Virus record (IMG/VR): IMGVR_UViG_3300046011_010468
Location: 1-56,528 of that record
Length of the DNA stretch: 56,528 bases
Source of the DNA: a virus
Taxonomy: Duplodnaviria > Caudoviricetes
Direction: 5' to 3' (one strand)
Part shown: positions 14,529-55,600 of the stretch, piece by piece
Layout: the number at the start of each line of letters is the position of its first letter
Numbering within the stretch: position 1 is the first letter of the stretch
Made by a program: the position numbers and the translations under genes
The notes under the pieces: model-generated
The model's input: the letters and a program-made list of their open reading frames with translations, nothing else
Databases searched by the model: none
Told to the model about the DNA's origin: nothing

Positions 14529-14539
14529 ACTGTGTGACC

Positions 14540-24774: not shown

Positions 24775-24816
24775 GGCTGGAGGCTCGTTGCTGGATTCTT
24801 GATGCTGGATGCTGGA

Positions 24817-26497: not shown

Positions 26498-27648
26498 GCG
26501 GCGTGGGGTTTTGTTGTGACAGTGGGGTGGCGGTGGACGCCGGTGGCGGCGAGGAGGCCGGCGAAGGCAGCGGCGTTTTCGGCGGGGGGAAGTTCGGGGG
26601 CGGGGGGTGGTGTGACGCGTGACGTGACGCGGGGCGTGACGGCGTCGCCGAGGCGTGGTGCTCCGGCTTGCTTCCAGGCGGTGGTGGCGCGGTCGAGCAG
26701 GGCGGCGAGGTCGTGGCAGAGGTGTGCGCGACGGGCGGAGACTTTGACGGGGTCTTTCTGGCCGGTGTTCTGGGCGCTGTTGGCCCATTTGAAAAACCAG
26801 GCGAGGAGGTGCCAGTCCTGGTCGTCGAGTACTGCGAGGTTGTGGCGGGCTTCGTAGAGCGCGGATTCCTCTTCGGCGCTCCAATGCGGGGTCTTGGTCC
26901 AGCTCGGGCGGAGGGCGTTGATGCGGCGTTTCAGGGTGCCGAGGGGGTCGGGGTCTGGTGGAGTTGACGGTGGTTGACGGTGGTTGACCTGGTTGACGGG
27001 GTGTTCTGAATCAGAGTCAGAGATCTTAGATTCAGAGATAGATAAAGAAGAAGATAAAGAGGGCGTTACGTTATTCTCTTCGTGACGTTGCGTGACGCGT
27101 GACGTGACGCGTGACGTGACGGGGTTGGATGCTTGATCCTGGATGCTGGATGCTTGCTGCTCCTGATTTTCGGCGTCGGTAAGTTGTTCCACGGCGGCCT
27201 TGGCGGCTTTTTTCTTGTCGCGAGAGCGTTGAGCACGCCTCGCGGCGGCGGTCTTACTGCGCTCTCCGTTTTTGTCGGGCGCGTTGTGTTCCACAAAGCG
27301 GGGGAGGGTGACGGTGTGGGCCTCGGGGTCGTGGATGGCGTAGCCGACGGACTGCATGGCCTCGCCGAATCCGGGGATGTGGGCAAGGGCGTCAAGGTAG
27401 GAAAGGTCGGCGTGACGGAAGACGCCGTCGGTGGTGTGGTCGTTGGCGGCGAACCAGACGCGTGACAGGCCCATCACCGTCACGTCACGCAGGGCGTTAC
27501 GCGTCACGGTATCCGTCACGCTTCCAAACAAGTCTTTGGCCTGGCTGGTGAGGATGTAGCCGGGGGCGGATTTGGCGATGTGGGCGGCCATGCGGTGGAC
27601 GCGTGGGTCGCTTTCGAGGTCGGCGCGGATTTTGATCCAGGAGGGCAT
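26494..27648 (-). CDS. Phage replication initiator
   Basis: N-terminal WIKIRADLESDPRV...W....H..DG...PGFGEAM..VG family pattern, AARRAQRSR helix, internal iterons. Confidence 0.8.
   Translation of the reverse strand: MPSWIKIRADLESDPRVHRMAAHIAKSAPGYILTSQAKDLFGSVTDTVTRNALRDVTVMGLSRVWFAANDHTTDGVFRHADLSYLDALAHIPGFGEAMQSVGYAIHDPEAHTVTLPRFVEHNAPDKNGERSKTAAARRAQRSRDKKKAAKAAVEQLTDAENQEQQASSIQDQASNPVTSRVTSRVTQRHEENNVTPSLSSSLSISESKISDSDSEHPVNQVNHRQPPSTPPDPDPLGTLKRRINALRPSWTKTPHWSAEEESALYEARHNLAVLDDQDWHLLAWFFKWANSAQNTGQKDPVKVSARRAHLCHDLAALLDRATTAWKQAGAPRLGDAVTPRVTSRVTPPPAPELPPAENAAAFAGLLAATGVHRHPTVTTKPHAA
27005..27121. repeat. Probable replication origin: AT-rich tract plus GTGAC iterons
   Basis: AGATAGATAAAGAAGAAGATAAAGA next to CGTGACGCGTGACGTGACGCGTGACGTGAC inside the initiator gene. 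Confidence 0.6.
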
Positions 27649-27921: not shown

Positions 27922-28013
27922 GGGCGGCTGGATGCTGGATTCTCGATGCTGGATGGGGTGCCTGCTGCGCTGCGCCTAGAGGGGATGTTTGCGCAGCAGG
28001 CCGAGGGGTGGGT

Positions 28014-32254: not shown

Positions 32255-33252
<998 letters not shown>

Positions 33253-34649: not shown

Positions 34650-37600
34650 TTACAGGCTGGCGGCCTGGCGCACGAGGAGGGGGGCGCGTTGTTTGATGCG
34701 CTGGTATTCGCTGAGGGCGGTTTCGTAGAGTTGGCGGCTTTCGGGCGGGAGGGACTGGCGGAAGCGCTGGCGGGCGGTTTCGGCGGTGATGCCTGCTTTT
34801 TTGCTGCCGCCGATGAGAGCGGCGGGGTCGATGATGCTGAGGGTCTTGTTGACATCGCCTTCGGTTTCCATCGGGACGCCGAGTTCCTTGAGCTTGCGGA
34901 CGAGGTTCTTGATGGCGGTCGGGTTTGGCTCGTCCTGGGCGAGCTGGGCGACGAGGAGGCGTTTGGCGCGGCTGGTGACGGTGGTGCCGTAGTCGAAGCC
35001 GGGCTGGGCGTCGTAGCCGTTGGCGGCGCGGAAGTCGTCGGCCTGGCGGTAGAGGTTCGGGGCGGCGGATTTGACGTTCATGCCGAACACCGAGCGGATG
35101 ATGGTCTGCACGGGGTCGTAGGTGGCGAGGGTCTTGTTGACCTGCCGGGTGCCGGCGCGGGTGAGCGCTCCGCCTTCGCCAATGCCCACAGCGGCGGCGG
35201 CATCGGGTAGGAGCGGTGGCAGCAGGACGCCGGCGGCGTGCTGGGTGTAGGCTCCGAGCAGTTCGCGGGTGCTCATGTCGGCCTCGGTGAGGTGTCGGCC
35301 GGAGAAGGTGTCGCGATTGGTGATCCACGAGACGGCGAGATTGCCCACGGGGCCGGCGGCGGCGGTCTGACGCCAGAAGGTCTGCCAGGCGTTTTCCTTC
35401 TCCTCGAGTGGCACGATCTTCTGGCCGAGGAGATCGGCAAAGGGCATGATGGCGGAGATGTCGAACTGCTGGACCTGACCCTGGCCACTGCGCACGGGCA
35501 GGAGCATGGAGAACATGTGCAGGCCGCCGAGACCGAGGATGCCTTTGCCGCGACCGAAGAGGTCTTTTTTGATCTCGTCGCGGTCGTCGTCGTCCAAGCC
35601 CAGCAGCATGGCGCTGAGGGCGCTGATGGCAGCGGGGAAGGCCAAGGCGGCGCTCAGGGCGATGGGGCGCTCCTTGGCGGCGAGGCCGAGGATGCGGGTG
35701 GACTCGCGGAAGAAGGAGAAGAACGGGTTCACAAAGCGACCTGCAGCACGGGTGGTGGCGCTGCCGCCAAGGCGGTCGTAATACGGGAACCACTTTCTGA
35801 CATGGCCTGCGGCCATGGATGCTTGATCCTGGATGCTGGATGCTGGATTTTCAGAGGCGAAAGTGGCTTTTGCTTTGAGGTAGGCGGCGATCTTGTAGAA
35901 GTCGTCGGGGACGCGGCGGTATTCGGCGAGCTGCTCGTGGGTGGCGTGGAATTTGGCACCAAAGTCGAAGAACAGGCGCTGGATCAGGCCGGGGTTGAAG
36001 TTCTCGACGGTGGCGGCATCGGGCAGGAGGCCTTTGAGGCGTTCGCGCACGAGGCTGCTGTAGGCATCCCCACCGAGGACGCCGTGTTCGATGAGCTCGG
36101 CATACTGCGGGCCGCCCTTGCGCATGATTTCGAGGGCCTGGCGGTAGTAGGGCCAGTTGCCGGGGTTCATGATGTTGCTGCCGCCGAGGTAGGCGAAGAC
36201 GGTGTTGCCGACGGCATCGCGGATGTGGGAGCCGGGGTTCCAGACGAGCTTGCCGGACTTCCACTTGCGCAGGATGGCGTCGTAGAAGCGCAGGGCGGCA
36301 TTCGGCACGTCCATCTTGTCGAGGATCTGCGCGGCGATGTCTTTCTGCACGAATTTCCCAGCGAGCGGGCCGAAGCGGTCGTTGTCGGGAATCTCGGTGT
36401 ATCCCTGGAGCGACACGTCGCTGACCCATTCCTTGTTCTTGGCCGTCTCGTTGAGGAGTTCCATCGTCGCGGCGTTGTGCGTCTGGGCGAGCACGTAGCG
36501 GGCGATGGAGTAAACGGGGTCTTTGATCAGCTTCGGCGGGTCGAAGGGGTTTTCCTTCCGGTAGGTGGCTTTTTGGTGCTCGATGGCGGCCTTCACCATA
36601 CCGGCGAGGGCCGGGGAGAGCTTCTGCGGCGTGTCGAGGTCGGCACGGGTGAGCATGCCGATCTGACGGCGCACTTCGCGGCGCTGGGCGTGGTCGAGCG
36701 GGGCGAACATGGCCTGCATCGCCTTGTCGTTGCCGTGGCGCTCCTGGAGCATGTCGAGGGCCTGCCGGCGGATGAAGTCGGAGTAGAACGCATCGCGGGT
36801 GGCTGCATCGCGGAAGCGCCAAGCGTTGCGTCCGCCTTCCTGGCGGTTCACGGTGGGGTGCTGGCCGTCCTTCCCCTTGCGGGAGGTGTCCACGATGTGG
36901 AAGGCGGTGGTGCGCTGCTGCATCAGGTCTTTCACGCCGAGCTTGAAGGCGGCGAGCACGCTGCCGCCGGATTCCATGGCCTCGTCGAGCATGTAGCGGG
37001 GCATCCAGCCGTTGGCCTGGAGTTCCTCGAAGGTGTCCGGGTGCATGATGCCCTGGCGCACGAGTTCGGTGCCGGTGTCACGCAGCATCTGGCGCAGGCG
37101 GTTGCCGAGGGCCTGCATGGCGGGTGGCAGGCTGCTCATGGGGATCTTGTTCTCCATGGCGTCGAAGAGCTGCTCGCGGTAGGCGGGGTTCTCGGCGAAT
37201 TCCTTCGGGTAGGCGAGATCGGACAGGCGCGGGTTGCCGCTGAGGGCGCGGATGAGGTCGTTCGACTTCTCAGCTCCCCAGGCGGCCTTGCGTTGCATCT
37301 CGTGGCTGAGGGCCAGCCATTCACGCGGCATCATGGCCGTGGGCAGGAGTTGATCGACCACGACGTTTTTGGCCCAGGCACCGAGGCCGGCGGGCTGGTT
37401 CAGCCATGCGGCGACGGCATCGGGGGCTTTGCGGATGTCCTTGCCGGAGACGCGCAGGAAGCCCTGGGCGATGGCGTTGCCGGCCTTCGCGGCGGCAGCG
37501 GCGTCGAGTTCGCCGAGCTGGGTGCCGAGTTTCGCGAGGGCTTGGTTGCCGGGGAGGTAGCGGCCGGTGTTGGTCACAGCGGCGATGGTCTGGCCGACGG

Positions 37601-40600
37601 CTTTGGGGATGAGGTTCGCGGCTTGGCCGAGGCCGGTGACGGTGCGATCGAGGGCGCGGGCAGCGGTTTCGACGCGGGGGGAGGCGAAGAGGGTTTGCCA
37701 GTTTTGAGCCTCATCGCTTTGGTCCCATTCGGCAGGATCGTTGCCGTAGTTTGGCGGAAGGATTTCGGTGGGGGTGAGTTCTTTGAGGACGCGGTAATCG
37801 CTGCCAAGCACGGGTTCATTGTCTTCGCCTTCATCGACCACGGTGCCGGTGACGAGGTAGATGTGCCGGTCGTGACGTCCGATTAAGGCGTCGAGTGACG
37901 GCTCAGTTCCGTACGATGTGGCAAACTGCCAACGCCCATTTTCCCAGGTGATGGGGAAGGTGCTGATGCCTTTTTCGTAACGTGGGCGGTCTGGGGTGGA
38001 CGTGATGAAGTTCTGCGAACGTCCGCTGGCGGGTGGAATGCCGAAGCGAATGTAAAGTCCTTGGATAGCACGAGGGAAGCGGTCGGCCTTTTTCTTGGCC
38101 TCCCATTCTGCGTCGGAAAGCTGCATGGCTTCGGCGCGTCGGGCGTCTATTTCTTCGGGTGGGGCTTTGAAAAAGGCCTCGTCTGCGATCTCGCGTTTTT
38201 TGCGCAGGTCGATGGCTTCCAGCGCGGCAGCATCGGCTTTGGCAACAGCGTCTTGCCATTCGGCGACACGGGCACGGACGAAGGCGGCATCTGTGGGTTT
38301 GGTGATGCCAGTATCAGGTTGGCGCTTTGAGGATGGCAGCGGCATTGTGTCACCGAGCTCCTTGGCGATCTTGGCAACCTGCTCCTTGGTGACGGGCTGG
38401 GTGGTGTCGTGGTGGGTGAGCCACTGCTTGAGGACGGCGGTGGTGGTGGGGACGGCTTTGCCGAGGCCGGTGACGGTTTTGTCGAGGGCGCGAGCGGCGA
38501 GTTCGGCGCGGGGGGAGGCGGGGAGGCTGGATGCTTGATCCTGGATGCTGGATGCTGGGGAGGTGGTGGCTTTCGCCAGCGTGCCACCGTCACGCATGGC
38601 GTCGGTGACGATGAAGGGGATAGTATCGACCGACAAAACTGCGCCCGTTTCGGTGTCTTGAATCCAGTTGGAGGGTTTGGTGTCGGCAAGGCCGATGAGG
38701 AGGTCTTCTTTGGGGTGAGGCTTGGTCCAGTAGCCTTTCTCCTGTTTCCAGCCTGCGGGGGTGAGGTCTGGCGCTGCGGCGGGGTGTGTCCCTTCAATGT
38801 AGGGCTGTGAGATGACGATGGAAGGACCAGCGGCGTTTTCGAGAATGCCCTCGAAGCGAGTGTCGTCGTCGAGCATTTCGTTGTGAAGTGCCCAGCGGTC
38901 GAAGTATTCGGAGGGCAGGGCGTCGTCTTCCATGACGCGGGTGGTGCCGTCACGAAGCAGCAAGGCGCGGCGGGTAAGGCCGCTCAAGCCTGGGTAGGTG
39001 ACTTTGAAAATCCGGCGCACGTCTTCGGCGGCGGGTTCATAGACACGGTGTTCTCCACGAGAGTCTTTTTCAGGTCCAAGCCGTGACGGATCAAAAATCA
39101 ATTCTTGTTCTTTAGCCCAGCGGGTGAGGCGTTGGTATTCCTCGGCAATGGCTGCTCGGTTTCCGTGGAGAGTCGCGCTTGGCGGTTGCGAGCGATACCC
39201 GCGCCGATTTGTGCCGAGGATAATCCGCGAGATGAATTCAGGCGAATTTGCAGAGCTTGCTCGCGTGTCAGAGGTTGTCCGTTGGCGTCGATCATCGGGA
39301 GAAATGTTACCATCGTTTAACGAAGATTCAACACGCTTCGTCGCCATGAACAAGCGGTCGGAGCGGTCGCCGAGGGATTTGGCGCGGGCGGCGGTGTCCA
39401 GACGAGGAGACGCGGAGAGTGGGAGACTGGGAGACTGGGAGATTTCAGACTGCAGATACTCCATTTGTGCGGTGGCCCAGGCTGGACGCGTGGAGGCATC
39501 CGGGAAGTCGGCGAGCAGGTTATCGAGATCGGTCTGGAGTTCAGCGAGCGGCACGCTTGATGCGGTGGCGTCGTTGTGGATCTGCTGGAGTTGCTGCGGG
39601 GTGTGTTGCTGGCGAATGCGCTGCCATGCTGCCTCCTCCTGCGGGATCAGCACGCGCAGTTGCTCGGCGTCCTGCTTGGCTTTTTGCCGGACGGATGGCG
39701 AGACAGCGCGGTTGTTGACCAGGGTGTTGGCGTTGGCGAGCGAGACTTTGAGCCCGTCGATGTAATTGGTGGCGATGCCTTGTTTGGCGCTGGGGGCCAG
39801 CATGAGCGCCCAGGCGTTCTGCGCGGTGATCTGGGGTTGGCGGTTGCTGGCGGCGAGGGCGCGGGAGCCTGCGGCCAGAGGGTAGTGCGCGAGCATGAGG
39901 TCGAGTGGGACGACCTTGTTGTTGGGGGTGAGGTTGAAGTTGGCGGGGCGGGCGTCTGCGGCGATGATCTGCTCCTGGGGGTGCCAGTAGGTGGTGCCTT
40001 CCATGCGGTCGTCACGGAAGGTGGTGCCGGTCATTTCTTCGAGCGGCTCGAAGCCGATGGAGGCCATATAGGCGTCGATCTGCTTTTGGGTGACGGGGAT
40101 TTTTTTGCCGTCGGCGTCGCGTTTGGATTCGACGAAGGGCTGAGTGGTGATGATGACGGGGTAGGCGGCTTCGTCGGTGGTTTCGACGCCGTGGGCCTGC
40201 CAGTCGATGCCGGTGAGGCGGGAGAAGAGGGCGAGGCGGTAGAGGTATTCCGCCGGCGTGGCCTCGCGCATTTTAAGGCGGCGGAATTCGCCGGTGATGC
40301 CGGGGGCGACGTCCTCCGTGGGGACGTAGCCGTAGAGTCCGGGCAGGGTGATCTTCGTGACTTGCTTGTCGTCGTCGGAGATATAGACGGCGTGCTCTCC
40401 GCCGGAGTCTAGGTGGAGGCCGAATTGATTCTGGCGTTGCGGCTCCTGAGCCACTTCGCGAAGCGCTTCTTGTTGTGCGCTTTGATCTTCGGCGATTCGT
40501 CGCTGGTCAAAGCGTCGATTCGGGCGAGACGCTGTCTCTCCTCCGAACTGGTCGGCCAGGGATTGCCTTTGGCGAAAGTCTTCAGAGCTTCGGCGGGGCT

Positions 40601-43600
40601 CATTGGTGTGGGTCCATCGGGAGGGGTCGTTGGCATGGGGGAAGATAGCACGGAGTGCGGTGATTTGCGAGGGGTTTGAGCGGGAGGAAGACGCAAGTCC
40701 AGGGCGGACAGCGTCACTGGCGTTTTCGGCGAAGCGTTGACCAGCGCGGATGACGGCGTTGGTGAGAGTGAGGTTGGACTGATTGGGGTCAAGGTTGATG
40801 ATTTGAGCGTAACGGCGTAGGCGCTCTGGATCGCGAAGCAGTTCTTTGCGTGCTTTGGCGAGGCTGGTTTCATCCAGCCATCCCAGAGCACGAACGGCTT
40901 TGAGGTCTTCGTAGCGGTCTTCCTGAGTCAAACGGTCCGAAGACGCCAGCGGGACCATCATGTCGGTGGACATGATGCCGGAGGCGTTGCGGAGTTTGAA
41001 GGGGCCGGCGGCTTCGACGGTGGTGGCGGACTCGGGCGGGGAGAGGAGGACGGTGCCGGCGTCGTCGGCGGCCTTCACGCTGCGCATGAAGGCGGCGGGG
41101 GTGATGACCGGGTTCTGGGCGTTGAAAGCGTCCCAGACGCGTCGGATGGGGAGCCATTGGCTGCTCTGGCCGCGTTGGGCTGCGGTGAAGGCGCGTTGGA
41201 GCAGGGTGAAGGCAGCAGCGGGGGAGTCGATGAGGGCGGAGATGCCCTGGCCGGGGCGGCTGGTGGCTGGCGGCTGGTTGCTGGATGCTGGGCGGAAGAA
41301 CGCGGCGCTGGCTCCGAGGGTGGTGGGCGCGAGGGCGCGTTCGAGGGGGAGGCGCTGGCGGTTGGAGGCGTAAACGGCATCATTTTCCACTTCCGCCAGA
41401 GCGGTGGAGAGAGGTTCAGGAAGCGTTCCTGGGGTCTTTTCTGCAACGTATTCCGCCATGAGCTGGCTGTTGGCGGAGCGGTGGATTTGCTTGAGAGTGT
41501 GGGCAGAAAGAGAGGGGTGTCGCGCTTGAAGGGCCGGTAGCGAGGCACCATGCAGATTGATTAAGTGGTTCCAGACGGTGTTAGCGGCTGCCGCCGGTTT
41601 GGACTGGAGGGCTTTTGCCAACTCTTGAATCAAGGGGTGGTCGCCGTTGTCCGTCTCCTCTTCACCTGCTCCAAAGGGGATAAAATCATCGTCATTCTGG
41701 CGTGGGAGCATGTCGCGCAGTTTGTATGCACGGGCGACGGGCTGTCCCACAGCAGCGGTGATGCGCTCTTGCAATGGCTCCCAAATGGAGGATTTCCAGT
41801 TTTGGAGAGGTTTTTGCAGCAGGGATTCTTGCAATTTCCCGACGGCAACCGCCGGTAGGACGGCCTGGTTGACGAGCTGTTCGAGTCCGAGAATTTTCTG
41901 CCGCCAGTCGGGGGTGGTTTTGGGGTCGAAGTCGGACGGGTGTCCGACCAATGAGTCGTAGCCTAAAAAGGCCGGAGGAAGGACACCGAAAAGCCCACGG
42001 AGATCAAAACTGACGATGCCTGTGACTTGTGTGAGGGCTGGGATTTGGTCGAGACGTGTGATCGTGATATTGCCACGCACGGTTTCGAGGGCTGGCAGCG
42101 TCATGTCGTCTTGAAGTTCAACGTTGCCCTGAATGAGCTTGATGTTGGGTCCAACAATGGAGGATGAGTAAGCAAGGTCGATGTAACGGCGGTCGTTGGT
42201 TTTCACTGCTTGCCCTTCCTCAAATCCATCGTTGTCGTAGGGCGACCAGTCGTATGGTTGCAGGGCGGCCGCATCGGCGGCATAAGTGCCGTCGGCAAGC
42301 TTGATAAATCCTTTGGCATCCCAGGTGGCACCTGGAGCGGGTGCGACGGGGATGGACGCGAGGAAGCGGGCGCGGTCATCGGCGATTTTTTGCAACTCCT
42401 CGGCTGCGCGGCGGCTGTTCTCGATGGTGTATTCGAGGGTGCGACGAGTGCGGGGACTGTCGGACTGGACGGCGTAGTTTTCGACCTCGGGGAGGTATTC
42501 GAGGGGGATGCTGCCGTTGTTGCTGGCGGACTGGACTTCGACCACGTCGTCGCCAACGAAGCGGAGGGCGAGGAGAGAGGTACCGTTTTTGCGATAGACG
42601 GCCATTTTCCCCTGCTGGGCGTAGGTGCGGGCCAGGCCTCGGCTGGTGCACCAGTTGGGGTGGCTGAGGGCTTCCCAGGTGGCGAAGATGGCATCCTGCT
42701 CGGTCTGGGTGGCTCCGGCGGGGATCTGCGGGAGGGTCATCCATTCCCCGCCTTCGAGTCCTTCGACGGTCTGGGCGGCGTGGCGGGTGCGCAGGGCGAT
42801 CTCGGCGGCGGCTTTGGCGTGCTGCTGGTAGTGCTCCAGCATGGCGGGCAGGCTGTGCAGCTTGCCTTCGTTCCAGGCGGTGCGTGTTTCAGCGACGGCG
42901 ACGGGGTAGAGCGTGACGGGGAATGCCACGGTGCTCTTGGTGAGGTCGGCCATCGTGGCCCGGAGCATGGCGGACTGGAAGAAGGGATCGTCGGCGTGGG
43001 CACCGGCGAGGTAGTCGGCATTGGCGGCGGTGACGGCGCGGTGCTGCTCCTGGAGCTTTGGCAGCAGGAGTTCGGCGAGTTTTTGCGGGTCGTTGCCGTG
43101 CTGGCGGCGCAGCTCACGCAGGGCGGGATTGCCCTGGTTGTTGGGGTCGGCGAGGGTGCTGCTGACGTAGGGCAGCGCATCGGTGAGCGGGGTGCCGAGG
43201 GTGTTGGTGAGCTCAAAGTCGGACATCGCGGCGTTTTTCAGCGCGTCGAGCGTGGGGTAGCGGTTCCAGTCGATCCAGCGCCCGAGGTCGGCCATGATGA
43301 TCCAGTTGGCGTCTCCGCCGGCGGCCTTGTAACGCTCCACCTTGCGGTTGGCGGCGGCGAGGCGGGTGTGGTAGGATTCGGTGGTGGGCTGGAGGGCGCG
43401 GCTGAGGGGGAGACGCTCGGAGGCGAAGAGGGCCATCTGTCCGGTTGCCTCGTCTTCCATTTCCTTCTGCTTGCTGCGGATGATGGAGGTGAGGCGGTTG
43501 CGGTCTTGGCTTGAAAGTAGGCCGAGGGCGGTTTCGAGGCTGACGGTGTGGATGCCGTCCGGTTTGCGCACTTTGAAGAGGTGGACGATGGCACGGCCAG

Positions 43601-46600
43601 TCTGTCCGTTGGTAATGGCGTTGTTCCAGTCGCTGACACGCTGCGACTGCATGCCACCAATGGGTTTGGATGCCCAAGAGTAGGAGAGGATGTCGCCAAA
43701 CGGTGCCTTGAACGGTGGGTCAAAGTTCATCGACTCACGGGCACGGCGCGGTGCGGAGGCTAAAGCGCCGGGTTCCTCCATTAAGCCGTACTCTGAAAAG
43801 CTGAAATGGCGCTCCTGGCTGTGAGTCATGGCGTCTGCAAAGACTAATCCTATGGATTGGGACTGCTCGCGCAATCGACGGACGATTTGACGTTGCTGGG
43901 GAGTCGGCGCGGCGGCATTGCTTTGATCTTCCTGCACGACGTTGGTCGTTTCTAAAGTGGCGGGGAAACCCAGGGTGAAGGCATAGCCTCCTTCGCGGGC
44001 GGAGCCGAGAACGATGCGCTGGAATAACTGGGGCAGCGTGACGCTGGTGGGGATGCGCTCCACGGCGCGGAGTGCGAGGCGCGTGTCGAGGTAGAGGACG
44101 TGGTAGTGGTCAGGGTCCGCAGTGCGCAGGGTTTGCAGGTAGGGCAGTGTCTTGTCTGGGGCGTTAAGGAAAATGGAAGTTTTTAGACTGCCTGAGGGCA
44201 GGGCTTCGTAGTCGGCGACGTTGTCTTGGAACGGCGCGGTCGGCGTGGGCAGCACAGGCAGTTTGGGCTTACTGCTGCGTGTGGGTCGTTGGTCGATGCT
44301 GTCGTCGATGCTGCTAAAGATCATGCCTGACTCGCGGAAGCTGAAATAGCGTTCCCCGTTGGTCACCACATGGTCAATCAATGGCAGGCCGATGTTTTCA
44401 CCCATGGCAAGCAAGCGGCGTGTGACGCGGCGGTCGGCATCGCTGGGGCTTGGATCGCCGGAGGGATGGTTGTGGGCAATGATCCAGCCGGTCAGTTTGG
44501 ACTTGGGGTTGAGCATCCGGGCGGTGGCGATGATGCCGGCGATGACTTTGGGATCGGCGATGGCTTCATTGAGTCCGCCGACATGCACGATCTGGCTGTG
44601 AACCACCTGATTGGCGGCGTCCAGGATGGCAATTTTGAGGCTTTCAAAGTAGGGCGTGCGGACGGCCAGATTGAACGCGGCGAAATCTGCGGCGTTTTCG
44701 ATGATGGCACCACGGATGTCGAACCTGGGGATGCCACGCGAGATGAAATCATGGAGCAGGCTGGAGAAGGAATCAGACTCACGGAACGCCTCTTTGAGGG
44801 CGTCCACGTCTTGATCCATCAGCCCTCGCCATGTCCGTTGAGCGCGTTCTCGCAGGGCATCGAGTTTCCCGGCATTACCCACACTTCCACCGCTGGCGGG
44901 TAGCTCGTAGGGCTCGGTGCTGGCGGCGGCGGCACGAATGGCACGCTTGGCGGTGGGTTGCTTGCTGGCAGGGACGTTGACATTGGGGAGGTCGAGATAG
45001 CCTTGGATGGCAGACTCGGCGAGGCGCGAGGCGGAGGAGAGAGAGAGCTGCTCATAGCTGGGTGCTAGAGTGTCTTGATTCCCTTGGCCTTGCACTCGGC
45101 CTTCATTTGCTGCTTCATTATTTCGTTGAGTCGCTCGCGCTCGCGCATGTGCTCTGGCAGCGTCGAGTAGTCGAACGGCTTGGCGTGCGTCGCCGGTGGC
45201 AATGCGCTCGGCTTTGTTGAACCATTGCTTGTAGCTGTCATGGAAAAGACCATACACCAATTCGGTCGTTTCATCAAGTGGGGTGTCGGTGAGCGTGGCG
45301 ATTTTTTCGCTCAGGCGCTCGATGTCACGCGGGCTGGTGACACGCAGTTCGGTGGCGGTCAAAGTGGCGACTCCGGCGACTGGGATGCCGTTATCCTCCA
45401 GTAGGCGGCGCATCGCCATCCAGCTTTCGCCGGTGTTATGCACGTCTTCGACGAGGTAGATCGGGCCGATGGCTTGGCGTAGGGCGTCAAAATCTGGGCC
45501 GGGGATGTAACCGACCGGGTCTTCCATTTTGGCCCAAAAGCTGGTTTTTTTCTTGGCCTCCGTGCGGGCAGTGGCACTGGCGACGCGTCCCGTCTGGACG
45601 GTGGCACCTTGTTGCTCGGCGATGCGCTGGGCCAGCACGTCGGGCAGGATGTTGCGGCCACTGGTGCTGGGCATGGGTAGCAGCACGGCGTTGGCGGGGA
45701 TGTCGGCAAAGGCGGCGGGCTTGTAGAAACGGTCCACGATGTCATCCGCCATGGCGCGAGGGAAGCCGGCGGCGGTCCATGCGTCCTTGGCCGTGCGGAG
45801 TGTGGTCACGTCACGCGAGGAGGTCAGGATCGGCGTGCGACCGGAGGCGAAGAGGGTGCCGAGGATGGTGGCCGGGGTGCTGCGCACGGGCATCTTGGCG
45901 CGGATGGCCTCGGCCAGCGCGGAGTAGAAGCCGGGTTCGACGTGCTCGACGGTGCGGTTGCTGGCTTTGAGCGCACCGAGGGGTTTCTGGCCGGGGCGGG
46001 TTTCGCGGAGGAGGACGACCCAGTCGTCGGGGGCACCTTTGACATACACGCTGTCGTAGCCGGACTCCATGAGGAGCTTGGTGAGGATGTCGCCGGCGAG
46101 TTGGGCGTCCCACTTCCCTTTGCCGAGGTTGTGAGCGTGCTGGGCGGCGTATTTGCTGGCCTGGAGCCATGGGGAGTCCTTGGCGGCGTCGATGGGCTGG
46201 TCGAGGTCTTCGGACTCCTGGAGGAGGTAGAGGTCGTCGTTGATGACGAGGAACGGCGTGGCGGGTTCAGGGAATGAGATGCGCTGGACCTTGCCAAACA
46301 CAGCGGCTTCCTGCTGCTTGCGCATGAGGTAGATGCCGTTGCCTTCGGTGTTGCCGAATCCGTTGTCCTTGCCGGGGGTGATCACGCCACGGTAGCCGAT
46401 GAGGTCGTTGTTGCTCAGGCTGGCCGACCATTCGCCGAAGAGTTCAGGGAGCGGCGTGGGTGCGGGAAGCGTGGGCTTTTTGAGGCCGGGGTAGGTGGGG
46501 CCGGTGGGCTTGCGATTCGCGGCAGCGAGGGGCTGGCCGGTGGCCGGGTGAACGCGGCGGGATGCTTGGAGGGCCTCGGGCAGGGTGTTGCCGTCTTCGT

Positions 46601-49600
46601 CGAAGCTGTCGCTGAGGTCGCGGTAGAACTGGCGCTGGCGGTCCCTTTCGGCGGCTTCGAGTTCATCGAGGGTCATCGCCTCTTCGCTGTCGTCGATGCC
46701 GGCCTCGGCCATCATTTCGCGGTCGCGCTCATTGGCGGCCTCGCGGTCGGCTTCGAGTTCAGCGGCGAGTTCAGCCCGCTCTACTGGGTCAGGGAGCGGC
46801 TCGCTGAGGAGCTTGTCGTAGGCTGGAGCGAAGGTGTCGGTTTTTTTGTCTAGCGCAGGCGTGCGAGGCGCGGATCGTTGGTCCGCTCCCACAGGGCGAG
46901 GACTTCCTCCGGCGGCGTTTCCTCGTGGTAGTTGAGCGGCGTTCTGGCGCTGCTGTAGTGCCATGCGAGCAGCCTCGGGTTGAGCTTCTGCCGCAGATCG
47001 GGCGGCCAGTTTGAGGCGGGGGTCGAGGTTGCCTGAATGACTTGTTCCTGGGTAAGCACCACGCTGTAGAGCGCTGAAAGCCCGTCCTGGAGTGACAGTT
47101 GAGATTCTGTGAGGGCGGAGTTCACCGGTGTTGGGGTTGAAGTTGTAGGCGACGAGTTCAGGGGTGTCGCCTTTGCGTCCCTGGCGGGCGATCTTGACGA
47201 CGGTGGCTCCGCGAAGGCGGAGGGCGACGGCGGCGGAATCATCCCATTCATTGGTGAGCACGAACTTAGCACCAGACTGCCACGCAGGCAAGACGAAGGA
47301 ATCGAACAAGCGCAGCAGATCGTCCGGGGTGCGGATGTCGGTGGTGGAGTCGTAGTTGCTGGTGCCTTTGCGTACGGGCTGGCCGGTGGCGGTGTCGATG
47401 AGGACGCGGCCGTTTTCCGTCTCGGGCACGCCGAAGTAGGGCGGATCGATGACGAAGCCAATGCCGGGGTTCTCACGGGCGAGGCGCGGTAGGAGCGTCC
47501 AGGAGTTGGCGCTGTGGACGGTTTTGCCAACGAACACTTGATGGTAGTCGCGGATCAGTTTCTCGATGTTCTTGGCGCGGTCGGAGGTGTGCCAGTCCCA
47601 GTCGTCGAACAAACCGGTAAAGGGTTCGTTGAGGTTGCCAGCGGCGTCGAGGTCGAGCGAGATGCTATTGTCTGACAGCATCTCGGCGGCGACGTAGAGA
47701 CCGGTGGTGGCGGGGTCGTCACGGGCAGGGATGGGGCCGGGGTGCTCGGCCTTGGGCGGCGCAAACATGGAGGTCTGGCCGGAGCGGGTTTCGAGCAGGT
47801 GCTTGTCCCATGCCTGGGCGGCGCTGACCTTCTGCGCGTAGGCGGCGAGGTCGAAGCCTGCGGGCAGGGCTTGATACATGCCGATCATGACGCGGGCCTT
47901 GAGGCCATGAACCCGGGCAAAGTGGCGGGCCTTGGCGGCGAATTCTTCGGCGGTGTAGTCCTTGTCCTTGAGGCTGGTCTGGTAGCCGGAGAGGGCGCGT
48001 TTGCGGATGGTGCTCCATGCGGCGTCGCTGATGGCGCTGTGGTCGAGGCCGTTGATGAAGCCGGCGAAGGCTTTCATGGCGGCGGGGAAGTCGGTGGAGC
48101 CGGTGACGGCATCGCGGGCGGCTTCCTGGACGCGTTTCAGATCCTCGATGCCAGCGCGGGCACCACGGGCGAGGGTTTCGACCTGGGCGGGGTCGGTGAC
48201 CTGCCGCAGGAAGGAGGCACGCCACGGGGAATACTCGGAGGCATGGCCGCCGGGTTTACCGAGTCCGGCTTTGTGGATGTATTGCGTGACCGTGCCGGTG
48301 CCGAAGAACATGTCGCCAATGGCGGCGGCATGGCGGGCGAGGGCGGCGATGGCGCGGTTGTAGATGCCACGGGCGAGCAGGGAGGACTTGCCGCCCTGGA
48401 TGTTGACGGGCTTGGCGGCGTCGAGGTCGCCTTTGGCGATGAGGGGTGCGGCGGGAAGTTGCTCGTCCTCGGGATGGGCGTTCCAGCCTGCATCCATGCG
48501 CTCCTCGGGCGTGTCCGGCATGGCGGGCGCGTCGGGGGCTGGGGGCACGGCGAAGATGGAGGGGGCGTCTGCAGTCGCGTCGTTTTCTCCCAAGGCGGCG
48601 AGATCGGCTGCTGCAGATGCGGCGTTGTCGGTCTGATTGGGTGGCGGTGCGGTGATGCCGACGATCTGGTCGAGCAGGGCTGGATCGATGGCGGCGTCGC
48701 GGGCGGCGAGGTCCGGTGGCATTTCGCCGTAGCGGCGCTCGATCTTGGGGTCGTAGGTGCGGTTGGCGTCGGCTTCCTCGGCGTGGGTGGCCTCGGGCAG
48801 GCCTCGCTCGTTCATCACCGTGTTGTAGGCATTGCGCAGGTGGATGCGGCGGAGCTTGCGGAAGGTTTCGGGGCTGAGGTCGGTGGAGGCGAAGCGCAGG
48901 AGATCGGTCAGGGTGCGCAGCTTGTTCTCGTCGAGAGCGTCCTCGACGTAGGACGAGGCGGCGTCGCGGGTGCGGTTGGAGGCGGCGAGGCCTTCGCCTT
49001 CGGGGATGAACCGGGCGGTGTTGATGAACTGGTATTCCAGACCGCGCTCGATGGCGGTGTCGCGCACGGCTTGTCGTTGCGCGAGGGTCATGGAGCGGGT
49101 GTGGTCGGCGTAAATGAAGCCGTCGTCACGATCTACCTCGATGCGGACAATGCCTGCCTCTTGAAGGTGCCAGCCTTGGAGTGGTTCGCCGTCAGGATCA
49201 TAGGAGACAAGTTCAGAGTGTTCATCCACAGGCGCGAACTGGCCATCGGGGAACAACCATGCTTTTTCGCCTTTGAATTCGCGAGTGAGGGGCGCATCGA
49301 CCTGCTTGAGGGTCATCGCTCGGACCTGACTGGCGGTGAGGCGGGGGGATGCTTCGAGGCTGAGGATGTCACTGGAGTCGAGGTTGCGGTGGCGGGCGCT
49401 GTAGGATTCTGGGGGGAGTTTGAGTCCGCGCTGCTCGACGTGGTCGAGGGCTTCTTCGCGGGAGAGGAACTTCCCCTCGTCGGTGGTGACGTAGCCGAAG
49501 TCGTCGAAACCACTGCCACGGCTGTCCATCCATTCTTCGAGGGCGTATTTCCCGGCTTTGACCTGATAGGGGTCGTTGCGGCGCTGCTGGGGTGTGTAGA

Positions 49601-52600
49601 TGTTCTTCCAGACGTAGTGCGCCAGGATCTCCGGGTGCCACATGCCTTTGATGCCGGTGTAAACCTTGCCGTTCACGCTGATGGCAGGCTGGATGCCGGC
49701 ACGGTCGATGGCTTCGAGATAGACGCGGTCGGAGGCGGAGAGCGAGGTATCCTCCGCCACAGCGGCTTCGAGTTCGGCGCGGGAGGCGGCGAGGCGGTTG
49801 CTGGATGCTGGTTGCTGGATGCTGGATGCTGGTTGCCGCCCGATGCGGAGGTGGTTGGGGCCGCTGGCGAGGTTGAGGGTCTGGGTGCCGGAGACGGTGA
49901 CGCTACCGAAGCGTCCCGAGTCGAGGGTGAGGGTGCCGGTGGTTTTGTCGGCGTCTTGGACGGTGAGGGTGACATTGCCGATCTGTATCTCGTCCTCGAT
50001 TTCGAGTTCCTTGGCGAGCTGGTCGGCGGTGAAGGGCTGGCCCTGGCTGCCGGCGGCGTAGGTGGCGAAGTCCTGGGCGCTGCCGAGGTCTTCGGCGGCG
50101 CGGCGGGATTCGATGTCCTGGACACTGTCCGTGCTCTTGGCGGCGATGCGGGCATCGATGGCCTCCAAAATGGCCTGGCCGAGCGCTTCGCCGGAGTCCA
50201 CCGGCCATTGTTGCAGGGCGGCGGTGTCTTTTTCTTCGGTTTTGCCATCGCCACGGAGCGCCTGGGCGGCTTCGTCGATGTTGGAGGCGGTGCCGGGTTT
50301 AACGATGCCGTTGTCTAGCAGCCATGCAATCTTGGTGGCGGCGTCGGTGACATCGCCGGTTTTGATGCGCTGCTGGGCTTCGTAACCGCTGACGCGCTTC
50401 TTCTGCACCTTTTTGCCGGTCTTGGTGGTGACGGTGATGGTGTCGTTGTCTGCCTCTCGGTTGAGGGCATGCCACCAGTCCCAGGTGCCGGGGGTGTTGG
50501 TGGGGCCGCCGAGGCTGCCCACGCGGTCTTTGAGGTCGGAGATGATGTCTCCGCCGACGGGCGGTGGGAGGACTTTGGCGGATTCGCTGGTTTTGACGGC
50601 GAGGGAGAATTTCTTCGGGGTGAATGTGCCGTCGGGGGCGTTGGCAAACTCTTGAGCGGCTTTTTGGACTTCGGCGCGGTAAGCGCGGAGTTCTTTCCGA
50701 ATGGTGGCACCGTCTTGGAAGGTATCATCCATGATGCGCGTGACGAGCGCGTCGATGCGCTGTTGAGCGCGTTTCCCCGAAGAGTCATCGAGGAGGGCAG
50801 CGTCAAAGTCGGGACGGATGGCGAAGGCGGCGGCGGAGAGGTCGTCCTGGAACGTGATGTCCATGGGGACGGTGTTGCCGTCACTCTTGACTTTGATTTT
50901 TACCTTGCGGGGCGGCTGATTCTTGGGTGCGTTTTGCACCACGGGCGGTGCGCCTATCGCAGGGCCTTCGCTAGTGCTTCCGCGTTGTGATTGCTCGGAG
51001 GGAGGCAGTAAGCCACCCTCCATGCTTGGGCTTTGTCCGCTCCCAGTTTGACCAGGTGTTTCACCCTGTTCTTGGGAGACATTTGGCGCAGTGCCTTGTG
51101 GGTTGCGGGTTGCGTTGTTTTCATTGGGGCGGGATGACTGGGTGATGGGACGCGGGGTTTGGTCGGTGGCAAGGCCGAAGCCTTCACGGGCGTCGCTCTC
51201 GGAGCGGAGTAGGTTGGCGGTGAGGGGGAAGGTGTAATGGAGGTCGTTGAGTGCGGCCTGTTTGATGAGGATATGGTCGGTGCCTTGGGTGCTGAGGCTG
51301 CGGGTCCAGTTCTCACGCGAGTTTTCGACGTAGGCGGCGGTGGTGTCGTCCAGTTCTGTTTGGAAGTCGGCATCTTGCTCCTTCATCCAGTCGAGTTCTT
51401 CCTGGGCGGTCTGGCGCTCAGGGCTGCCTTCGAGACTGAATTCGACGCGGGCCTCGGCCATGCCCCTGCGGCTGAGGGTGTATGGGTAGCCTCCCTGGTC
51501 GCCAGAGCTGCTCTGGTCAACACCGATTCCGAGGAGGGTAAGCTGGCGGCGCTCGGTGAAGCTGATGGTGCGCCAGCCTGCGCCGGTGCGCCGACGACCA
51601 ATGCGGCCAATGGCGAGATTGAGCATGGCCTCGGCTTTATCGACGCCATAGGTTCCAGCCTGGCGGGCGGCGTTGAGTTCCTGGGTGGCGCGTTCACGCA
51701 GGAGTTCGGCGGCGTATTGCTGGGCGCGGAGACGGCGTTTCAGGGCATCGCGGGCCTGGGGGGAGCGGTTTTGCTCGGCGAGGCGGTCGCGGTTTTCGAG
51801 CGCGGCGGCCATGTCCGATGCGCGGTCGGGTTGTTCTTCGTCGGTGGTGTTTTCCTGATCGGAGAGGTCTTGGGTGGTGGGCAGGAGTCCGGACTCGCGT
51901 TGGCGGCGGGCGGCGATCTCGGCCTGCATGAGGCGTTTGCGCAGTTCGGCAGCGGCTTCGGGTGTGGCGTTGGGGGACAGCGCCAGATCGGCATTGGCCT
52001 CGCCAGCGGTGTAGGCGATGCGGCGGAGTTCGGCGAGCACGGGGCCAGGGATGGCTCCTTGGAACAGCGGTTTGCCCTCGGCCTGGGCGCGAAGCTCCGC
52101 CTGACGCAGGGCGGCGATCATGTCTGCGTGGCGCTCAGGCGGGGCGGCGGTGAAGACGTCCTGCACGGGTCCTGGCATGGACTGCACGAAGCGGGCACCG
52201 GCGAGGTCGGCCCCGGCACGGATCAGGCGGGCGTGCAGGCTGGCGAGGGTCTGGCGGGCTTTCTGTGGCTGCTGCTTGAGCAGGGCGAGGAGATCGGCAG
52301 GCGGGGACTCGGTGCGTTGGGTGAGACGGGTGACGAAGCGGGAGAGAAGCGGGGCAGATTTGGAGACTTGGAGACTTGGAGACTGGGAGAGGAGAGCACT
52401 CTGCACTTTCTGGGACACGCTGGCGTCTCCGGCCATGGCGGTGAGGAGGTGGCGGAGGAGAGCGGACTTGGGTTCCTTATTCTTGGTTCCTGGTTCCTTG
52501 TTGTTGCTGGCGCGATAGGCGCGGTAGGCGATGGACTGTAGCTCGGGGGTGAGGAGGTCGAAGGCGCGGGCCATGGCCTCGGGGGTGAGGCTGGGGTCGG

Positions 52601-55600
52601 TCTTGGCGAGGTGGTCGAACAGGACACCGCTCTGCATGGCCTGGAGGGCGATGCCAGCGGGGTCGCGCAGGTAGTCGAGGGTAGCGAGGCGGTCCTCGGT
52701 GCCTTGGCTCTTGCCTTCGTAGATGCGGAGCTGGGCGGCGATTTGATCGACCATGCCTTGCAGCTCGGCACGGAGCGGGGCATCGACCTGGCCCATGAGA
52801 TCGCGCAGGGTCTTGGAGAGATCGCGCAGCAAGTCTCGGACCCACTGGAGCAGCGAGGTGGGGGTATCGACCGTCTCGGTGATGGCCTGGGCGAAGGCCT
52901 GGTCCTGCACCAGCATGCGCAGGAACTCGTTCTGCATGTGGTATTCCTGCTGGGCGGTGAGCTTTGCGGGAAGGCTGCTCCGTCCGTAGTCGTAGGCCTG
53001 CCAGACTTTCTCACGCAGGGCCTGGGGCAGACTGCGCCACTGCTTGCGGATGGCCTCGGGGCCGTATTTCTGCGGCTGGGTGCGGGCGAGGCGCAGGACG
53101 GTGGCGTGGATGTCCTCCTCGATGCCGGTGGCGCGGATGGCATCCGCTGGATTGGCGAGGTAGTCGAAATTCGCGACGATGGCGTCGAGATCGATCATGC
53201 GGGTGATGCGTCCGTCGATCTCGGACACGGCGGTCATGGCACCATTCAAGCGACGGATGGCAGCAGGGCCGATGGCGATGGCGTCATACAGCGTGTGGTG
53301 GCGCTGGAGGCTGTCTTCCAAAGCAGCGAAGGCCTGGCGTGCCCAGGCTTTCTTTGATGGGTCTTTGATGCGTGCCAAGGCGAGGAGCTTGGCGCGGGAG
53401 TAGGCGCTGTTTTTCCGCAGCGGCGACTTACTCTTGATGCTGAGGTCCGGCCCCATGCGGGCAGCGCTGGGATCGGGGCTGGATGCTGGGGGCTGGTTGC
53501 TCGATGCTGGAGGGACGCGGTTGGAGGTGTCGGTGCGGTCACCGCTGGCGAGCGGGATGTCGGATTTTGATTTGTCGCCGAAGTGGTTGGCGGCGGCGGC
53601 ATTGGCGCGTTCGGTGGTTTTCCAGCCGAGTTTCAATTCGAGGGCCTGACGCAGTTCGGTGTGGGTCTTGGAGCCGGTGAGGTCGGCGACAATCGCGGCG
53701 GCCTGGGCATCGGTGATCTCCTTGTTGGTGAGGGCGGTGTTGATGGCGTCGAACACTGCCTTCGTGGGCTGGCCGGGGATGGCGTCGTCGAGCGCCTTCT
53801 GGAGGGCGGGCGGCAGTGTGGGATCGAGCGGACGGCCGAGTGACTCGGCTTTCTGCTTGGCGGCTGCGGCTTTGGCCTCAGCTTCCTTGCGGGCCTGCTC
53901 GATCTTGTCGGAGGCGGGTTTAGCCGGACTTTGGCTAGACGCGGGTTGGCTAGGTGTTGCTCCAGAGAACCGGAGGGGGTCGGTTTTGGACTTGGTGAGG
54001 GCTTTGCTGCCGGTGATGCCGAGTTCGGCGAAGAGGGCGTCGCGCTGGGGGCCGGCGAGTTTGTTGAAGTCGTCGAAGGTCTTGCCGGTGACCTGCGGGT
54101 GCGCGGCGAGGGCTTTGGCGGCGGCAGCGGCTTCCTGGTCGGGCATGTAACGGTCCACGAGCCAGTCGGCGAGGGACTTTTCCAGCGTGGGGACGGCGGT
54201 GGGGTCGGGGCTGGAGGCTGGTTGCTGGATGCTGGATGCTGGATCGGCTACCGGAGCGCCAGACTGTGCAGGAGGCTGCCCGCTTGATGTCGGCTGAGTC
54301 CCATTGACAGCAGGTGCTTGAACTGGGCTTGGGTTGGCATTTCCGCCAGTTCCAGCCGGAGTTGCTGGCGCTGGGCCGGGTTGAGATTGCTGAGGTCCGG
54401 GAGCGGAGGTTGCTGGTTGCTGGTTGCTGGATGCTGATTGTTGGGCATAACGGTTGCGGGTCTGAGTCTCGGTGCCTGGAATGGCATCGGCGACGGCGTC
54501 GAGCTTGTGTTTACGGAGTAGGGCGACGTAAGCGTCTTTGATGATGGGTCGTCCGCCTTTGTCGATGTCGAGGATGGCGATAGGGTTTCCTGCTTCATCA
54601 ACGGGGCCTTTGAAGTCTTTGAGCGGCTTGAAGGTGTCGCCATCACGGGTCCAGCCGACAGCGTTCAGATCGGATTCTTCGACATCGAACAGTTCTCCGC
54701 CTTGGGCGAGGCTGAGAACCACGCCGGCGCGGCGCTTCATTTGTTCGAGGGTGGCGACGTCCACGCCGTCGAATTGCATGTTCTCGATGGCGAATTCGGC
54801 CATCGCGGTGGTTTCGGGGAGGTTGGCGCGGTTGGTGGGGGCGTATTTGTCCACGCGGCTGCCCTGGAAGGCGCTGATGCCCTCCCCTGCCCCGCCGAGG
54901 GCCATGGTGGCGACGGCGAACTCTGGCAAGGTCTTGAGGAATTCAGCGAGCGCCTTGCGTCCGGCGGTGGGGTCATCGGGATGGCTGGCAGCGCCGGACT
55001 GCCAGGTGGAGAAAATTTCGTCAGGCAGTTCTTCAAGCGCAAATTCACGCAGGCCGCCTTCAAAGAACTTCTGGCCGACAAATCCGAGGCGCTTCATCTG
55101 CGTCTCGAACTGTTTGGCGAACAGTGCCTTGGCCGAGGCGGGATTGACGAGTAGGCGCTCCACACCAGAGGCTCCGCCCAAGGCGGTGAGGGCGGCTGTG
55201 ACGCCGGCGGAAAGGATGGCTGGCATCTGTGCCATGCGCAGCGCGTCCGGGTGTTCGATGCCCTGGCGGCGTAAGTTGCCGTAGATGTCGGAGATTTGCG
55301 CACCGTAGGTTTGAGAACCGCCAGCGAGCGATGCACCGGCGAGGCCTGCGCGGGTAAGGGTCTGGGTAGCCTTCACTGCCTGGGCGGCGGTGTTGCTGCC
55401 TTCGAGCACGGCGGCGAGCGCGGGGAAAAGTCGAGATCCAGCACCGGTGGCAGCGAGGCCACGGATTCCCCATTGGGCGAGTTTCGCACCACCAGCCGCT
55501 GGAAGGATGGAGGTGGCGACCTCTGGGGTCATTTCGAGCAAACCGGCGCGGAGGAAGTTCTCGGAGGCGGACCCGTAGAGTTCCTTGCTTGTCTGCATGG

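Follow-up and report, generated by a model that had tools for sequence, protein, structure and literature searches.

The window, by which we mean the whole stretch of 56,528 bases analysed here (the linear IMG/VR virus record IMGVR_UViG_3300046011_010468), encodes a giant protein of 7277 amino acids (aa) whose centre is punctuated by the peptide L-x-A-S-x-R and close variants of it. We propose that this peptide is a selected junction signal which separates exchangeable modules of a phage polyvalent protein. The main new result is that related giant proteins carry lineage-specific versions of the peptide. Judged from the sequences, it is highly probable that the peptide is a junction signal with a specific reader; that it is a cleavage site we would give an even chance, and cleavage by a domain built into the giant protein is put forward as a tentative suggestion.

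The earlier note on this DNA had listed 18 such peptides in 15 entries, all of which were found in the translation of 34650-56483 on the minus strand, within about 10 nucleotides (nt) of the positions it gave. Including near variants the total is 21 sites, three of which had been overlooked:

49779-49793, minus strand: LAASR
49725-49742, minus strand: LSASDR (overlooked earlier)
49341-49358, minus strand: LEASPR
48972-48989, minus strand: LAASNR
46554-46571, minus strand: LQASRR
46512-46529, minus strand: LAAANR
45954-45971, minus strand: LKASNR
45837-45854, minus strand: LFASGR (overlooked earlier)
45024-45041, minus strand: LSSASR
43746-43763, minus strand: LASAPR
43413-43430, minus strand: LFASER
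43344-43361, minus strand: LAAANR
41358-41375, minus strand: VYASNR
40932-40949, minus strand: LASSDR
40680-40697, minus strand: LASSSR
39861-39878, minus strand: LAAGSR
39840-39857, minus strand: LAASNR
39402-39419, minus strand: LSASPR
38508-38525, minus strand: LPASPR
37674-37691, minus strand: LFASPR
53535-53552, minus strand: LASGDR, degenerate (overlooked earlier)

The earlier note had suggested a comparison with shuffled sequence, and in this comparison the motif was clearly enriched. The pattern L.AS.R occurs 11 times against 0.4-0.5 expected (analytic expectation 0.40; 300 residue shuffles, mean 0.50, standard deviation 0.73, maximum 3), an enrichment of about 25-fold, and the observed count was attained in 0 of the 300 shuffles. 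The looser pattern L.[AS][SA].R was observed 19 times against 1.95 expected, with a shuffle maximum of 8. Scrambled or substituted control motifs (R.SA.L, A.LS.R, S.AL.R, L.AR.S, L.AT.R, L.AS.K, I.AS.R, L.GS.R, L.AS.E and L.AS.Q) were each absent, and the control V.AS.R occurred once. In a six-frame scan of the window L.AS.R was not found in any other probable gene, and outside the giant frame the terminase (LAAAIR) and an open reading frame (ORF) of 186 aa (LVAATK) held the only matches to the pattern L.[AS][SA].[RK]. Within the giant protein the sites are confined to aa 2231-6270 and the degenerate aa 978-983, and the conserved ends are free of them. At five joints the sites are doubled (aa 2235/2253, 3310/3324, 3510/3549, 4357/4380 and 5541/5548), the two members being 7, 14, 17, 23 or 39 aa apart. 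The organisation of the protein is as follows:

34650..56483, minus strand: giant ORF, 7277 aa from the first ATG; the frame is open to the window end at 56528
53553..56483, minus strand: conserved N-terminal region, aa 1-977, junction-free; common to 12-29 of 32 relatives, fewest near its C-terminal end
53535..53552, minus strand: degenerate junction LASGDR, aa 978-983; relatives have LAAAER, LAAAKK or LAAAQR at the same joint
52710..53408, minus strand: family-wide conserved domain, aa 1026-1258, candidate zincin-like peptidase
37674..49793, minus strand: variable central region, aa 2231-6270, with 20 junction sites
44325..44672, minus strand: RadC-like JAB domain, aa 3938-4053, inside the 426-aa module (Pfam, 102.9 bits)
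40032..40199, minus strand: Kinase-PolyVal-like stretch, copy 1 (23.4 bits with the module alone, below the Pfam cut-off of 27)
38772..38915, minus strand: Kinase-PolyVal-like stretch, copy 2 (19.8 bits, below the cut-off)
34653..37673, minus strand: conserved C-terminal domain, aa 6271-7277, junction-free; common to all 33 giant relatives

About 480 N-terminal residues lie outside the window, since on another contig this protein (P0002) has a length of 7757 aa. The central segments between sites measure 17, 128, 123, 806, 14, 186, 39, 271, 426, 111, 23, 662, 142, 84, 273, 7, 146, 298 and 278 aa.

That the sites mark the boundaries of modules is indicated by comparison with giant relatives, of which 33 (4329-7757 aa) were retrieved with the C-terminal domain as query. 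When the window protein was compared by BLASTP with 32 of these, a conserved N-terminal third, a mosaic centre and a conserved C-terminal part of 1007 aa became apparent. At 20 of the 20 central sites the end of a match to a relative is no more than 15 aa away, where the match ends depend on BLAST and several of the relatives, being metagenomic, may be partial. Among the 105 match ends in aa 2200-6300, which are not mutually independent, 60% lie within 15 aa of a site compared with 13.5% of random positions, and the median distance from match end to site is 11 aa as against 72 aa for random positions. The same modules stand at different positions in different relatives, excised exactly at the motif; the module at aa 3816-4244, for instance, matches residues 2546-2974 of P0006, 5102-5523 of P0019 and 5346-5793 of P0030. 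The motif had been described as standing at almost every domain boundary, which is too strong. All central sites are at ends of homology, but of the 43 clusters into which the match ends fall only 20 have a site within 15 aa, and for 16 the nearest one is more than 30 aa distant. No free-standing copy of the 111-aa module (aa 4247-4357) was found among proteins of 61-195 aa. There are seven longer matches to it; the five inspected contain the same motif and resemble fragments or remnants of family members, so that they provide no independent test.

In the relatives, de novo counts of gapped words, made for each protein, revealed at least nine lineage-specific versions of the motif, all anchored on Leu and of the same shape but with different letters. 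The assignment of a protein to a version rests on exact-word counts and is as follows:

LxASxR: P0001, P0003, P0007, P0034
LFAAxR: P0004, P0019
LxSAxKR: P0010, P0011, P0013, P0014
LxAAxKT: P0018, P0023
LGAxKK: P0017
Lx[AS]R[AS]MR: P0012
LxKAST: P0025
LxKGRT: P0026
LAKSxV: P0029, P0030

LGSRAMRG and LAKASTT are further spellings among the versions of the relatives. At the joint that follows the conserved module "...ITPQMRxxVxxGQxLF" the peptide reads LFASQR, LFAALR, LFAAPR, LFSAPKR, LFSAAKR, LFAASKT, LFSRSMRG, LFATDK, LFASDR or LFASRR depending on the lineage, and the remaining joints of each protein use the same version as this one. The versions track the tree of the C-terminal domain, and in the LAK-type lineages the basic residue has shifted from position +5 to +2. 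A single co-evolving reader is the simplest cause of this pattern, because all joints of one protein change together. Modules present in several lineages carry the version of the protein in which they currently reside, which suggests that the peptide is re-fitted after transfer. In 29 of the 102 family proteins of at least 2500 aa the best Leu-anchored motif exceeds every shuffle, a conservative count since a motif had to surpass the most extreme of 30 shuffles by two log units and to be repeated exactly at least four times. The logo of 125 non-redundant sites from 12 proteins is L-[AFP]-A-[SA]-[P/x]-R, the Leu being preceded by A or P and the flanks being unconserved.

At the DNA level the sites had been described as divergent, which is right in part. 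The flanks are indeed unrelated (31-34% pairwise identity, which is background), but the 18-nt cores are 63% identical, approximately what the peptide and the strong codon bias of the gene impose. The Ser of the motif is encoded by TCC, TCT and TCG and also by AGC, thus by both Ser codon families. The unrelated flanks and the use of both codon families, together with the occurrence of lineage-specific versions at the same joints, support the earlier suggestion that selection acts on the peptide.

In the mechanism that we favour, the signal would be a proteolytic processing site read by a co-evolving enzyme encoded by the phage, and the favoured candidate for this enzyme is the conserved zincin-like domain of the protein itself (aa 1026-1258, E-E-D-I-H ... 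E). Domain release from polyvalent proteins by an embedded zincin has been proposed by Iyer, Burroughs, Anand, de Souza and Aravind (2017; PMC5512222). Cutting at every site would yield an N-terminal piece of about 1460 aa (including the 480 aa outside the window), a 1252-aa piece bearing the peptidase-like domain, about 14 modules of 84-806 aa together with short spacers of 7-39 aa from the doubled sites, and a 1007-aa C-terminal piece with hydrophobic segments. The family would then possess an evolving junction code, in which each lineage has its own version of six to eight residues, read by its own E-E-x-x-H metallopeptidase, and the protein would be a self-dismantling toolkit that falls into about 20 pieces after delivery; we consider this possible rather than probable.

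We infer that the giant protein would be packaged and injected, because of its family type, the position of the gene near the portal gene in the close relative L006 and the analogy with gp47 of phage phi24B. There is one Cys in the 7277 residues, 31 of the 33 relatives have 0-1, and most of 70 further family giants among the matches listed have 0-2; in L006 the portal contains 7, the CHAP protein 3 and the 371-aa protein between them 0. Our guess is that this scarcity suits proteins that are unfolded when they exit the capsid or that pass through an oxidising compartment. Strongly hydrophobic segments of 19 residues are found only in the conserved ends (aa 423-441, 55161-55217; aa 6945-6963, 35595-35651; aa 7083-7101, 35181-35237) and not in the module region, which suggests that the conserved ends contact the membrane. 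The near absence of Cys and the hydrophobic conserved ends would thus be compatible with threading of the chain out of the capsid, although they prove nothing.

The candidate domain has EEDIH at 53106-53120 (aa 1122-1126) and a downstream invariant Glu, that of NEFLRM, at 52926-52928. E98, H101, Y139, P147, E161, R164, M165, E178 and L194 of the domain are invariant in 16 of 16 aligned sequences. E98 and H101 are within EEDIH, and E161, located 60 residues downstream in N-E-F-L-R-M on helix 152-168, is presumably the third metal ligand. A profile of the domain retrieved 111 proteins from 1.84 billion representatives, nearly all of them giants with the domain 1100-1800 residues from the start, and in the window protein junction sites flank the module that holds it (aa 983 and 2235). 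HExxH is found at the aligned position only in the clade P0016, P0020, P0021 and P0024-P0027. The AlphaFold models have pLDDT (predicted local distance difference test) values of 86.5 for the domain and 88.7 for the core, and the predicted helices (H) and strands (E) are H2-12, H17-40, E43-46, E59-64, E67-72, H87-110 and H152-168, that is, N-terminal helices, three strands, the long EEDIH helix, an insert and the E161 helix. The same layout, including variable inserts between the two helices, is given for the MPTases of polyvalent proteins in the available text of Iyer et al. (PMC5512222), and the predicted topology of the domain agrees with it.

As the fold search with the full 233-residue model was swamped by a C-terminal helical hairpin, the core was modelled alone. 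In the VIA comparisons the core could be aligned to SPRTN (6mdx; Z 5.3, root-mean-square deviation (rmsd) 3.5, 97 aligned residues), lethal factor (6psn; Z 5.1, rmsd 5.5, 142 aligned), ArdC (6sna; Z 3.9, rmsd 4.5, 100 aligned) and YbeY proteins, minigluzincins (jannalysin, abylysin and selecase) and PPEP-2 (Z 3.9-4.6), all of which is below the level trusted by the tool. Zinc hydrolases are nevertheless notably frequent, at least 13 of the 50 VIA rows being of this kind by title among the matches listed, and which of the entries count as zincins is in part our assumption; these neighbours, though weak, speak for the zincin-like reading. The Foldseek neighbours in a viral library, all with E > 0.09, include ART-PolyVal polyvalent proteins, MuF-like, SprT-like and metallopeptidase proteins and N4-like virion RNA polymerases.

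Several observations weigh against cleavage by this domain or against cleavage in general. In the window protein and in most of the family the first zinc-binding His of HExxH, the motif that characterises MPTases, is replaced by Glu, and the window protein contains no HExxH at all; the domain could thus lack activity or be something other than a peptidase. Nor do HExxH and EExxH alternate in step with the motif version, both being found among the LAK-type lineages. No Pfam family, MPTase-PolyVal included, matched the segment or 16 family members at E<=1, the PDB sequence search with the domain gave only helical-bundle noise, Foldseek with the domain or core model gave nothing at E<=0.001, and the best Z of the wide VIA search on the core was 5.5, which is within the range that the tool calls unreliable. 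With regard to the sites, large multi-domain stretches are without any of them (aa 984-2235, 1252 aa; aa 2505-3310, 806 aa; aa 4381-5042, 662 aa), and the composition of their flanks is no closer to that of a linker than at random positions (fraction of order-promoting residues 0.23 and 0.26 versus 0.27; p = 0.09 and 0.58). Finally, the virion RNA polymerase of phage N4 bears an MPTase and is packaged uncut, according to the available text of Iyer et al. (PMC5512222). The MPTase-like domain placed by the earlier note at about 53100 is consequently retained in part: the family-wide conservation, the invariant E/H/E, the HExxH of a sister clade and the MPTase topology speak for it, and the Glu in place of the first His, the lack of Pfam and PDB matches and the weakness of the zincin fold matches (Z of 5.3 at most) speak against it. 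On the models, aa 1026-1258 may be described as a divergent zincin-like domain of uncertain activity.

Some other proteases were considered and set aside. The proposed Cys protease at 14540 (ORF 14258-14992) had no PHROGs match and no Pfam match, even at E<=1. A cysteine protease within the giant protein is ruled out by its single Cys, and RadC-JAB as a family-wide reader by its presence in only 7 of the 33 relatives in the precomputed Pfam lists.

The motif could instead be a cleavage site read in trans, by a head-maturation protease of the assemblin/HK97 type, by a small CHAP protein encoded upstream in a close relative or by a host protease. Phage head proteases share the assemblin fold, and CHAP domains are usually cell-wall hydrolases, which counts against the second of these candidates. 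The L-Q-A-S of the window resembles the assemblin sites YLQA-T and VQA-S of pseudorabies virus as given in the available part of PMC4498786, and assemblin-like peptidases are described at the C-termini of some polyvalent proteins (Iyer et al., PMC5512222). The relative L006 has a CHAP gene before the giant gene (25.8 bits, cut-off 26), and the corresponding stretch of the window belongs to the approximately 8% of the genome that is missing; L007, on the other hand, has no CHAP gene in that place. Protease families, head proteases included, were not found in 34 window ORFs with Pfam or in 31 with PHROGs, in a record that is about 92% complete and has its gap next to the giant gene. The motif, which would be expected in capsid, scaffold or portal proteins if these shared a protease with the giant protein, was not found there or in any other probable window gene by the six-frame scan, and a host protease hardly explains versions that differ between closely related phages. 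We regard a reader in trans as rather unlikely.

Another explanation is that the peptide stays uncut and serves for docking or handling. It would repeatedly attach the chain to a partner, for example the inner surface of the capsid, the portal, the packaged DNA or a chaperone, and could help to load, order or thread it, a role resembling that of the cargo-loading peptides of encapsulins. The concerted change in each lineage suits any co-evolving reader and not a protease alone, the core of hydrophobic, then small, then basic residues suits binding in a groove, S-P-R is present in 4 of the 21 window sites, the flanks are not obviously long disordered linkers, and the uncut N4 polymerase provides a precedent. 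Nevertheless, neither the conserved N- and C-terminal parts, the likeliest virion contacts, nor the Cys-free 371-aa protein beside the L006 portal contain the motif, and sites only 7-39 aa apart, as at the doubled joints, would suit the release of spacers better than docking; taken together, docking appears to us an improbable but serious reading. It is much less likely that the motif has no reader and is a scar or facilitator of in-frame module exchange by recombination. In favour of this, all sites coincide with boundaries of homology and the relatives carry the modules in shuffled arrangement, but only 18 nt are shared, the second and fifth codons are variable, the flanks are at background identity, Ser comes from both codon families, and transferred modules carry the version of the host protein. 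A chance or compositional effect in a protein rich in Ala (13.8%), Leu (9.2%) and Arg (7.0%) can practically be dismissed in view of the shuffled and scrambled controls above and the conservation of the positions across relatives.

A proteolytic processing site, our preferred reading, has parallels in known systems. In polyproteins of eukaryotic RNA viruses and of large DNA viruses, a virus protease cuts at short consensus sites. The giant protein is similar to these in having a short consensus at the boundaries of functional units which changes with virus lineage. It differs in that cleavage is here a proposal from sequence, that the candidate is metallopeptidase-like and not a Cys or Ser protease, and that the units are accessory modules shuffled between relatives. 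The head proteases of T4 and of phiKZ/SPN3US-like phages recognise the motifs L/I-x-E and A/S/G-x-E. In these phages the head protease processes proteins that are packaged and ejected (PMC10052503, PMC5694885), and as far as these sources are available the likeness to our proposal consists in proteins packed in the head, delivered with the DNA and carrying a short motif read inside the head; unlike these phages, the window has no detected head protease gene, and its capsid and scaffold genes lack the motif. The 2811-aa polyvalent protein gp47 of phi24B has been detected in virions of this short-tailed temperate phage (preprint 10.64898/2026.04.10.717836). It is likewise very large, has LPD and metallopeptidase domains and is a proposed ejection protein; the likeness is one of description, and the available text of the preprint describes no junction motif.

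The closest comparison is with the polyvalent proteins of Iyer et al. (PMC5512222), which, as described in the available text, are also huge phage polypeptides of unrelated enzyme domains with an embedded zincin-like domain; the near-portal position of the gene applies here to a relative. The window protein differs from them in its defined, lineage-specific six-residue joint signal, since the available text gives no cleavage or junction motif and the word "linker" has 0 occurrences in the main text, and its candidate peptidase differs from their MPTases in matching no Pfam MPTase model and in having EExxH instead of HExxH. The analogy with virus polyproteins is drawn there as well. In our full-text literature search no junction motif was described for phage polyvalent proteins, a search judged from its result listings and from passages of the articles, to which supplements, including the FTP files of Iyer et al., could add. 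The kind of protein and the idea of its processing are thus known (Iyer et al. 2017), and the defined junction peptide was not found in print. The special features of the present system are the many sites, the at least nine lineage versions at homologous joints and the E-E-x-x-H form of the candidate peptidase.

The modules themselves for the most part match no known family. Many unrelated domains in one polypeptide, as is typical of polyvalent proteins, are present here as about 19 segments with separate homology patterns. Pfam searches with the whole giant protein and with 21 segments, and PHROGs searches with the same 21 segments, gave nothing beyond RadC and Kinase-PolyVal, the two Kinase-PolyVal-like copies reaching 27.8 bits when scanned jointly in a 3778-aa piece. 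The 820-aa and 271-aa modules had no PDB sequence match, and a DPPY methylase and a phosphoribosyltransferase read by eye in the modules were not supported, the PDB sequence searches of the modules being empty. The precomputed Pfam lists of the relatives hold PF18760, PF18762, PF18763, PF18796, PF18798, PF18814, PF18823 and PF18853, which we take to comprise ART-PolyVal, LPD and ddrB-ParB families.

The estimated completeness of the record is 92%, and the missing part of about 8% adjoins the giant gene. The contig end (56483-56528 / 1-892) truncates the giant gene, and genes between it and the portal are also lost. The following genes were identified by a Pfam/PHROGs scan of the window ORFs, unless stated otherwise, and a replication initiator and an antirepressor are encoded elsewhere in the window:

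2-892, minus strand: ORF running off the window start; resembles the start of the Pro-rich 371-aa protein of L006
994-3387, minus strand: SU10-type portal
6277-8229: terminase
8256-9467: scaffold-like Ala/Gln-rich protein, read from the sequence, no family match
9510-11012: major head protein
19159-20358, minus strand: integrase

In L006 the gene order is SU10-type portal, 371-aa Cys-free protein, 180-aa CHAP protein and giant protein, so that two small genes separate the giant gene from the portal. The 180-aa CHAP/NlpC-P60-like protein (L006:4688-5230), encoded directly upstream of the giant gene, could be a cell-wall hydrolase of the virion or else a protease acting in trans. In L007 a 601-aa ORF lies upstream of the giant gene; it is a terminase by eye and has no Pfam match. 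Encoding together with virion or head genes, another characteristic of polyvalent proteins, is therefore seen in L006 and, if the reading by eye is right, in L007, the window's own upstream stretch being missing.

A search of 50,697 phage GenBank records, by tblastn with the C-terminal domain and by megablast with window bases 1-25000, gave no match. The host is probably a member of the Verrucomicrobiota, because the C-terminal domain is 79% identical in a contig (L004) of a Prosthecobacter sp. metagenome-assembled genome of this phylum. The integrase of the window together with the Verrucomicrobiota relatives points to an uncultured temperate phage of that phylum. Verrucomicrobiota assemblies contain relatives or remnants of the giant gene (L004, P0139), which have an L[PFY]AAxR version of the motif and 0 Cys in 4045 aa.

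The window also contains about a dozen tandem arrays with four to five copies of the heptamer CCAGCAT on the minus strand between 22389 and 54444, for example at 22389-22417, 24776-24817, 27126-27154, 27927-27955, 32921-32953 and 35816-35848, and further at 38522-38558, 41258-41291, 49799-49836, 53475-53510, 54210-54244 and 54408-54444. On the plus strand they read GCTGGAT/GCTGGTT. The pattern CCAGCATCCAGCA, with up to two mismatches, has 45 matches compared with 3.2 expected, 44 of the 45 on the minus strand, and some heptamer copies contain GCTGGTGG, which we take to be the E. coli Chi sequence. In the giant ORF the arrays translate as PASSIQQPASS and similar peptides, and two of them are directly before a junction site. 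P0008 and P0006 have other runs (NSEQRT, PSTTVN) at the same protein positions. Strict period-7 arrays are absent from L006-L009, and there is one in L004. A polar signal in the DNA is one possible role of the arrays.

For many phages and plasmids, polyvalent proteins are regarded as the opening move, yet their cleavage and its positions have so far been a matter of conjecture. A defined junction peptide supplies precise cut sites that can be tested, together with a concrete candidate for the enzyme. It also offers a simple way of dividing more than 100 giant proteins from metagenomes into functional units, most of them without a known family. The lineage versions are natural specificity swaps in which the co-evolution of enzyme and site could be followed. 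If the peptides are instead for docking, they would reveal how a chain of 800 kDa is organised inside the capsid. If the proposed junction code is true, phage polyvalent proteins would have their first cleavage code defined by sequence, and the products would be predictable from sequence in more than 100 uncultured phages.

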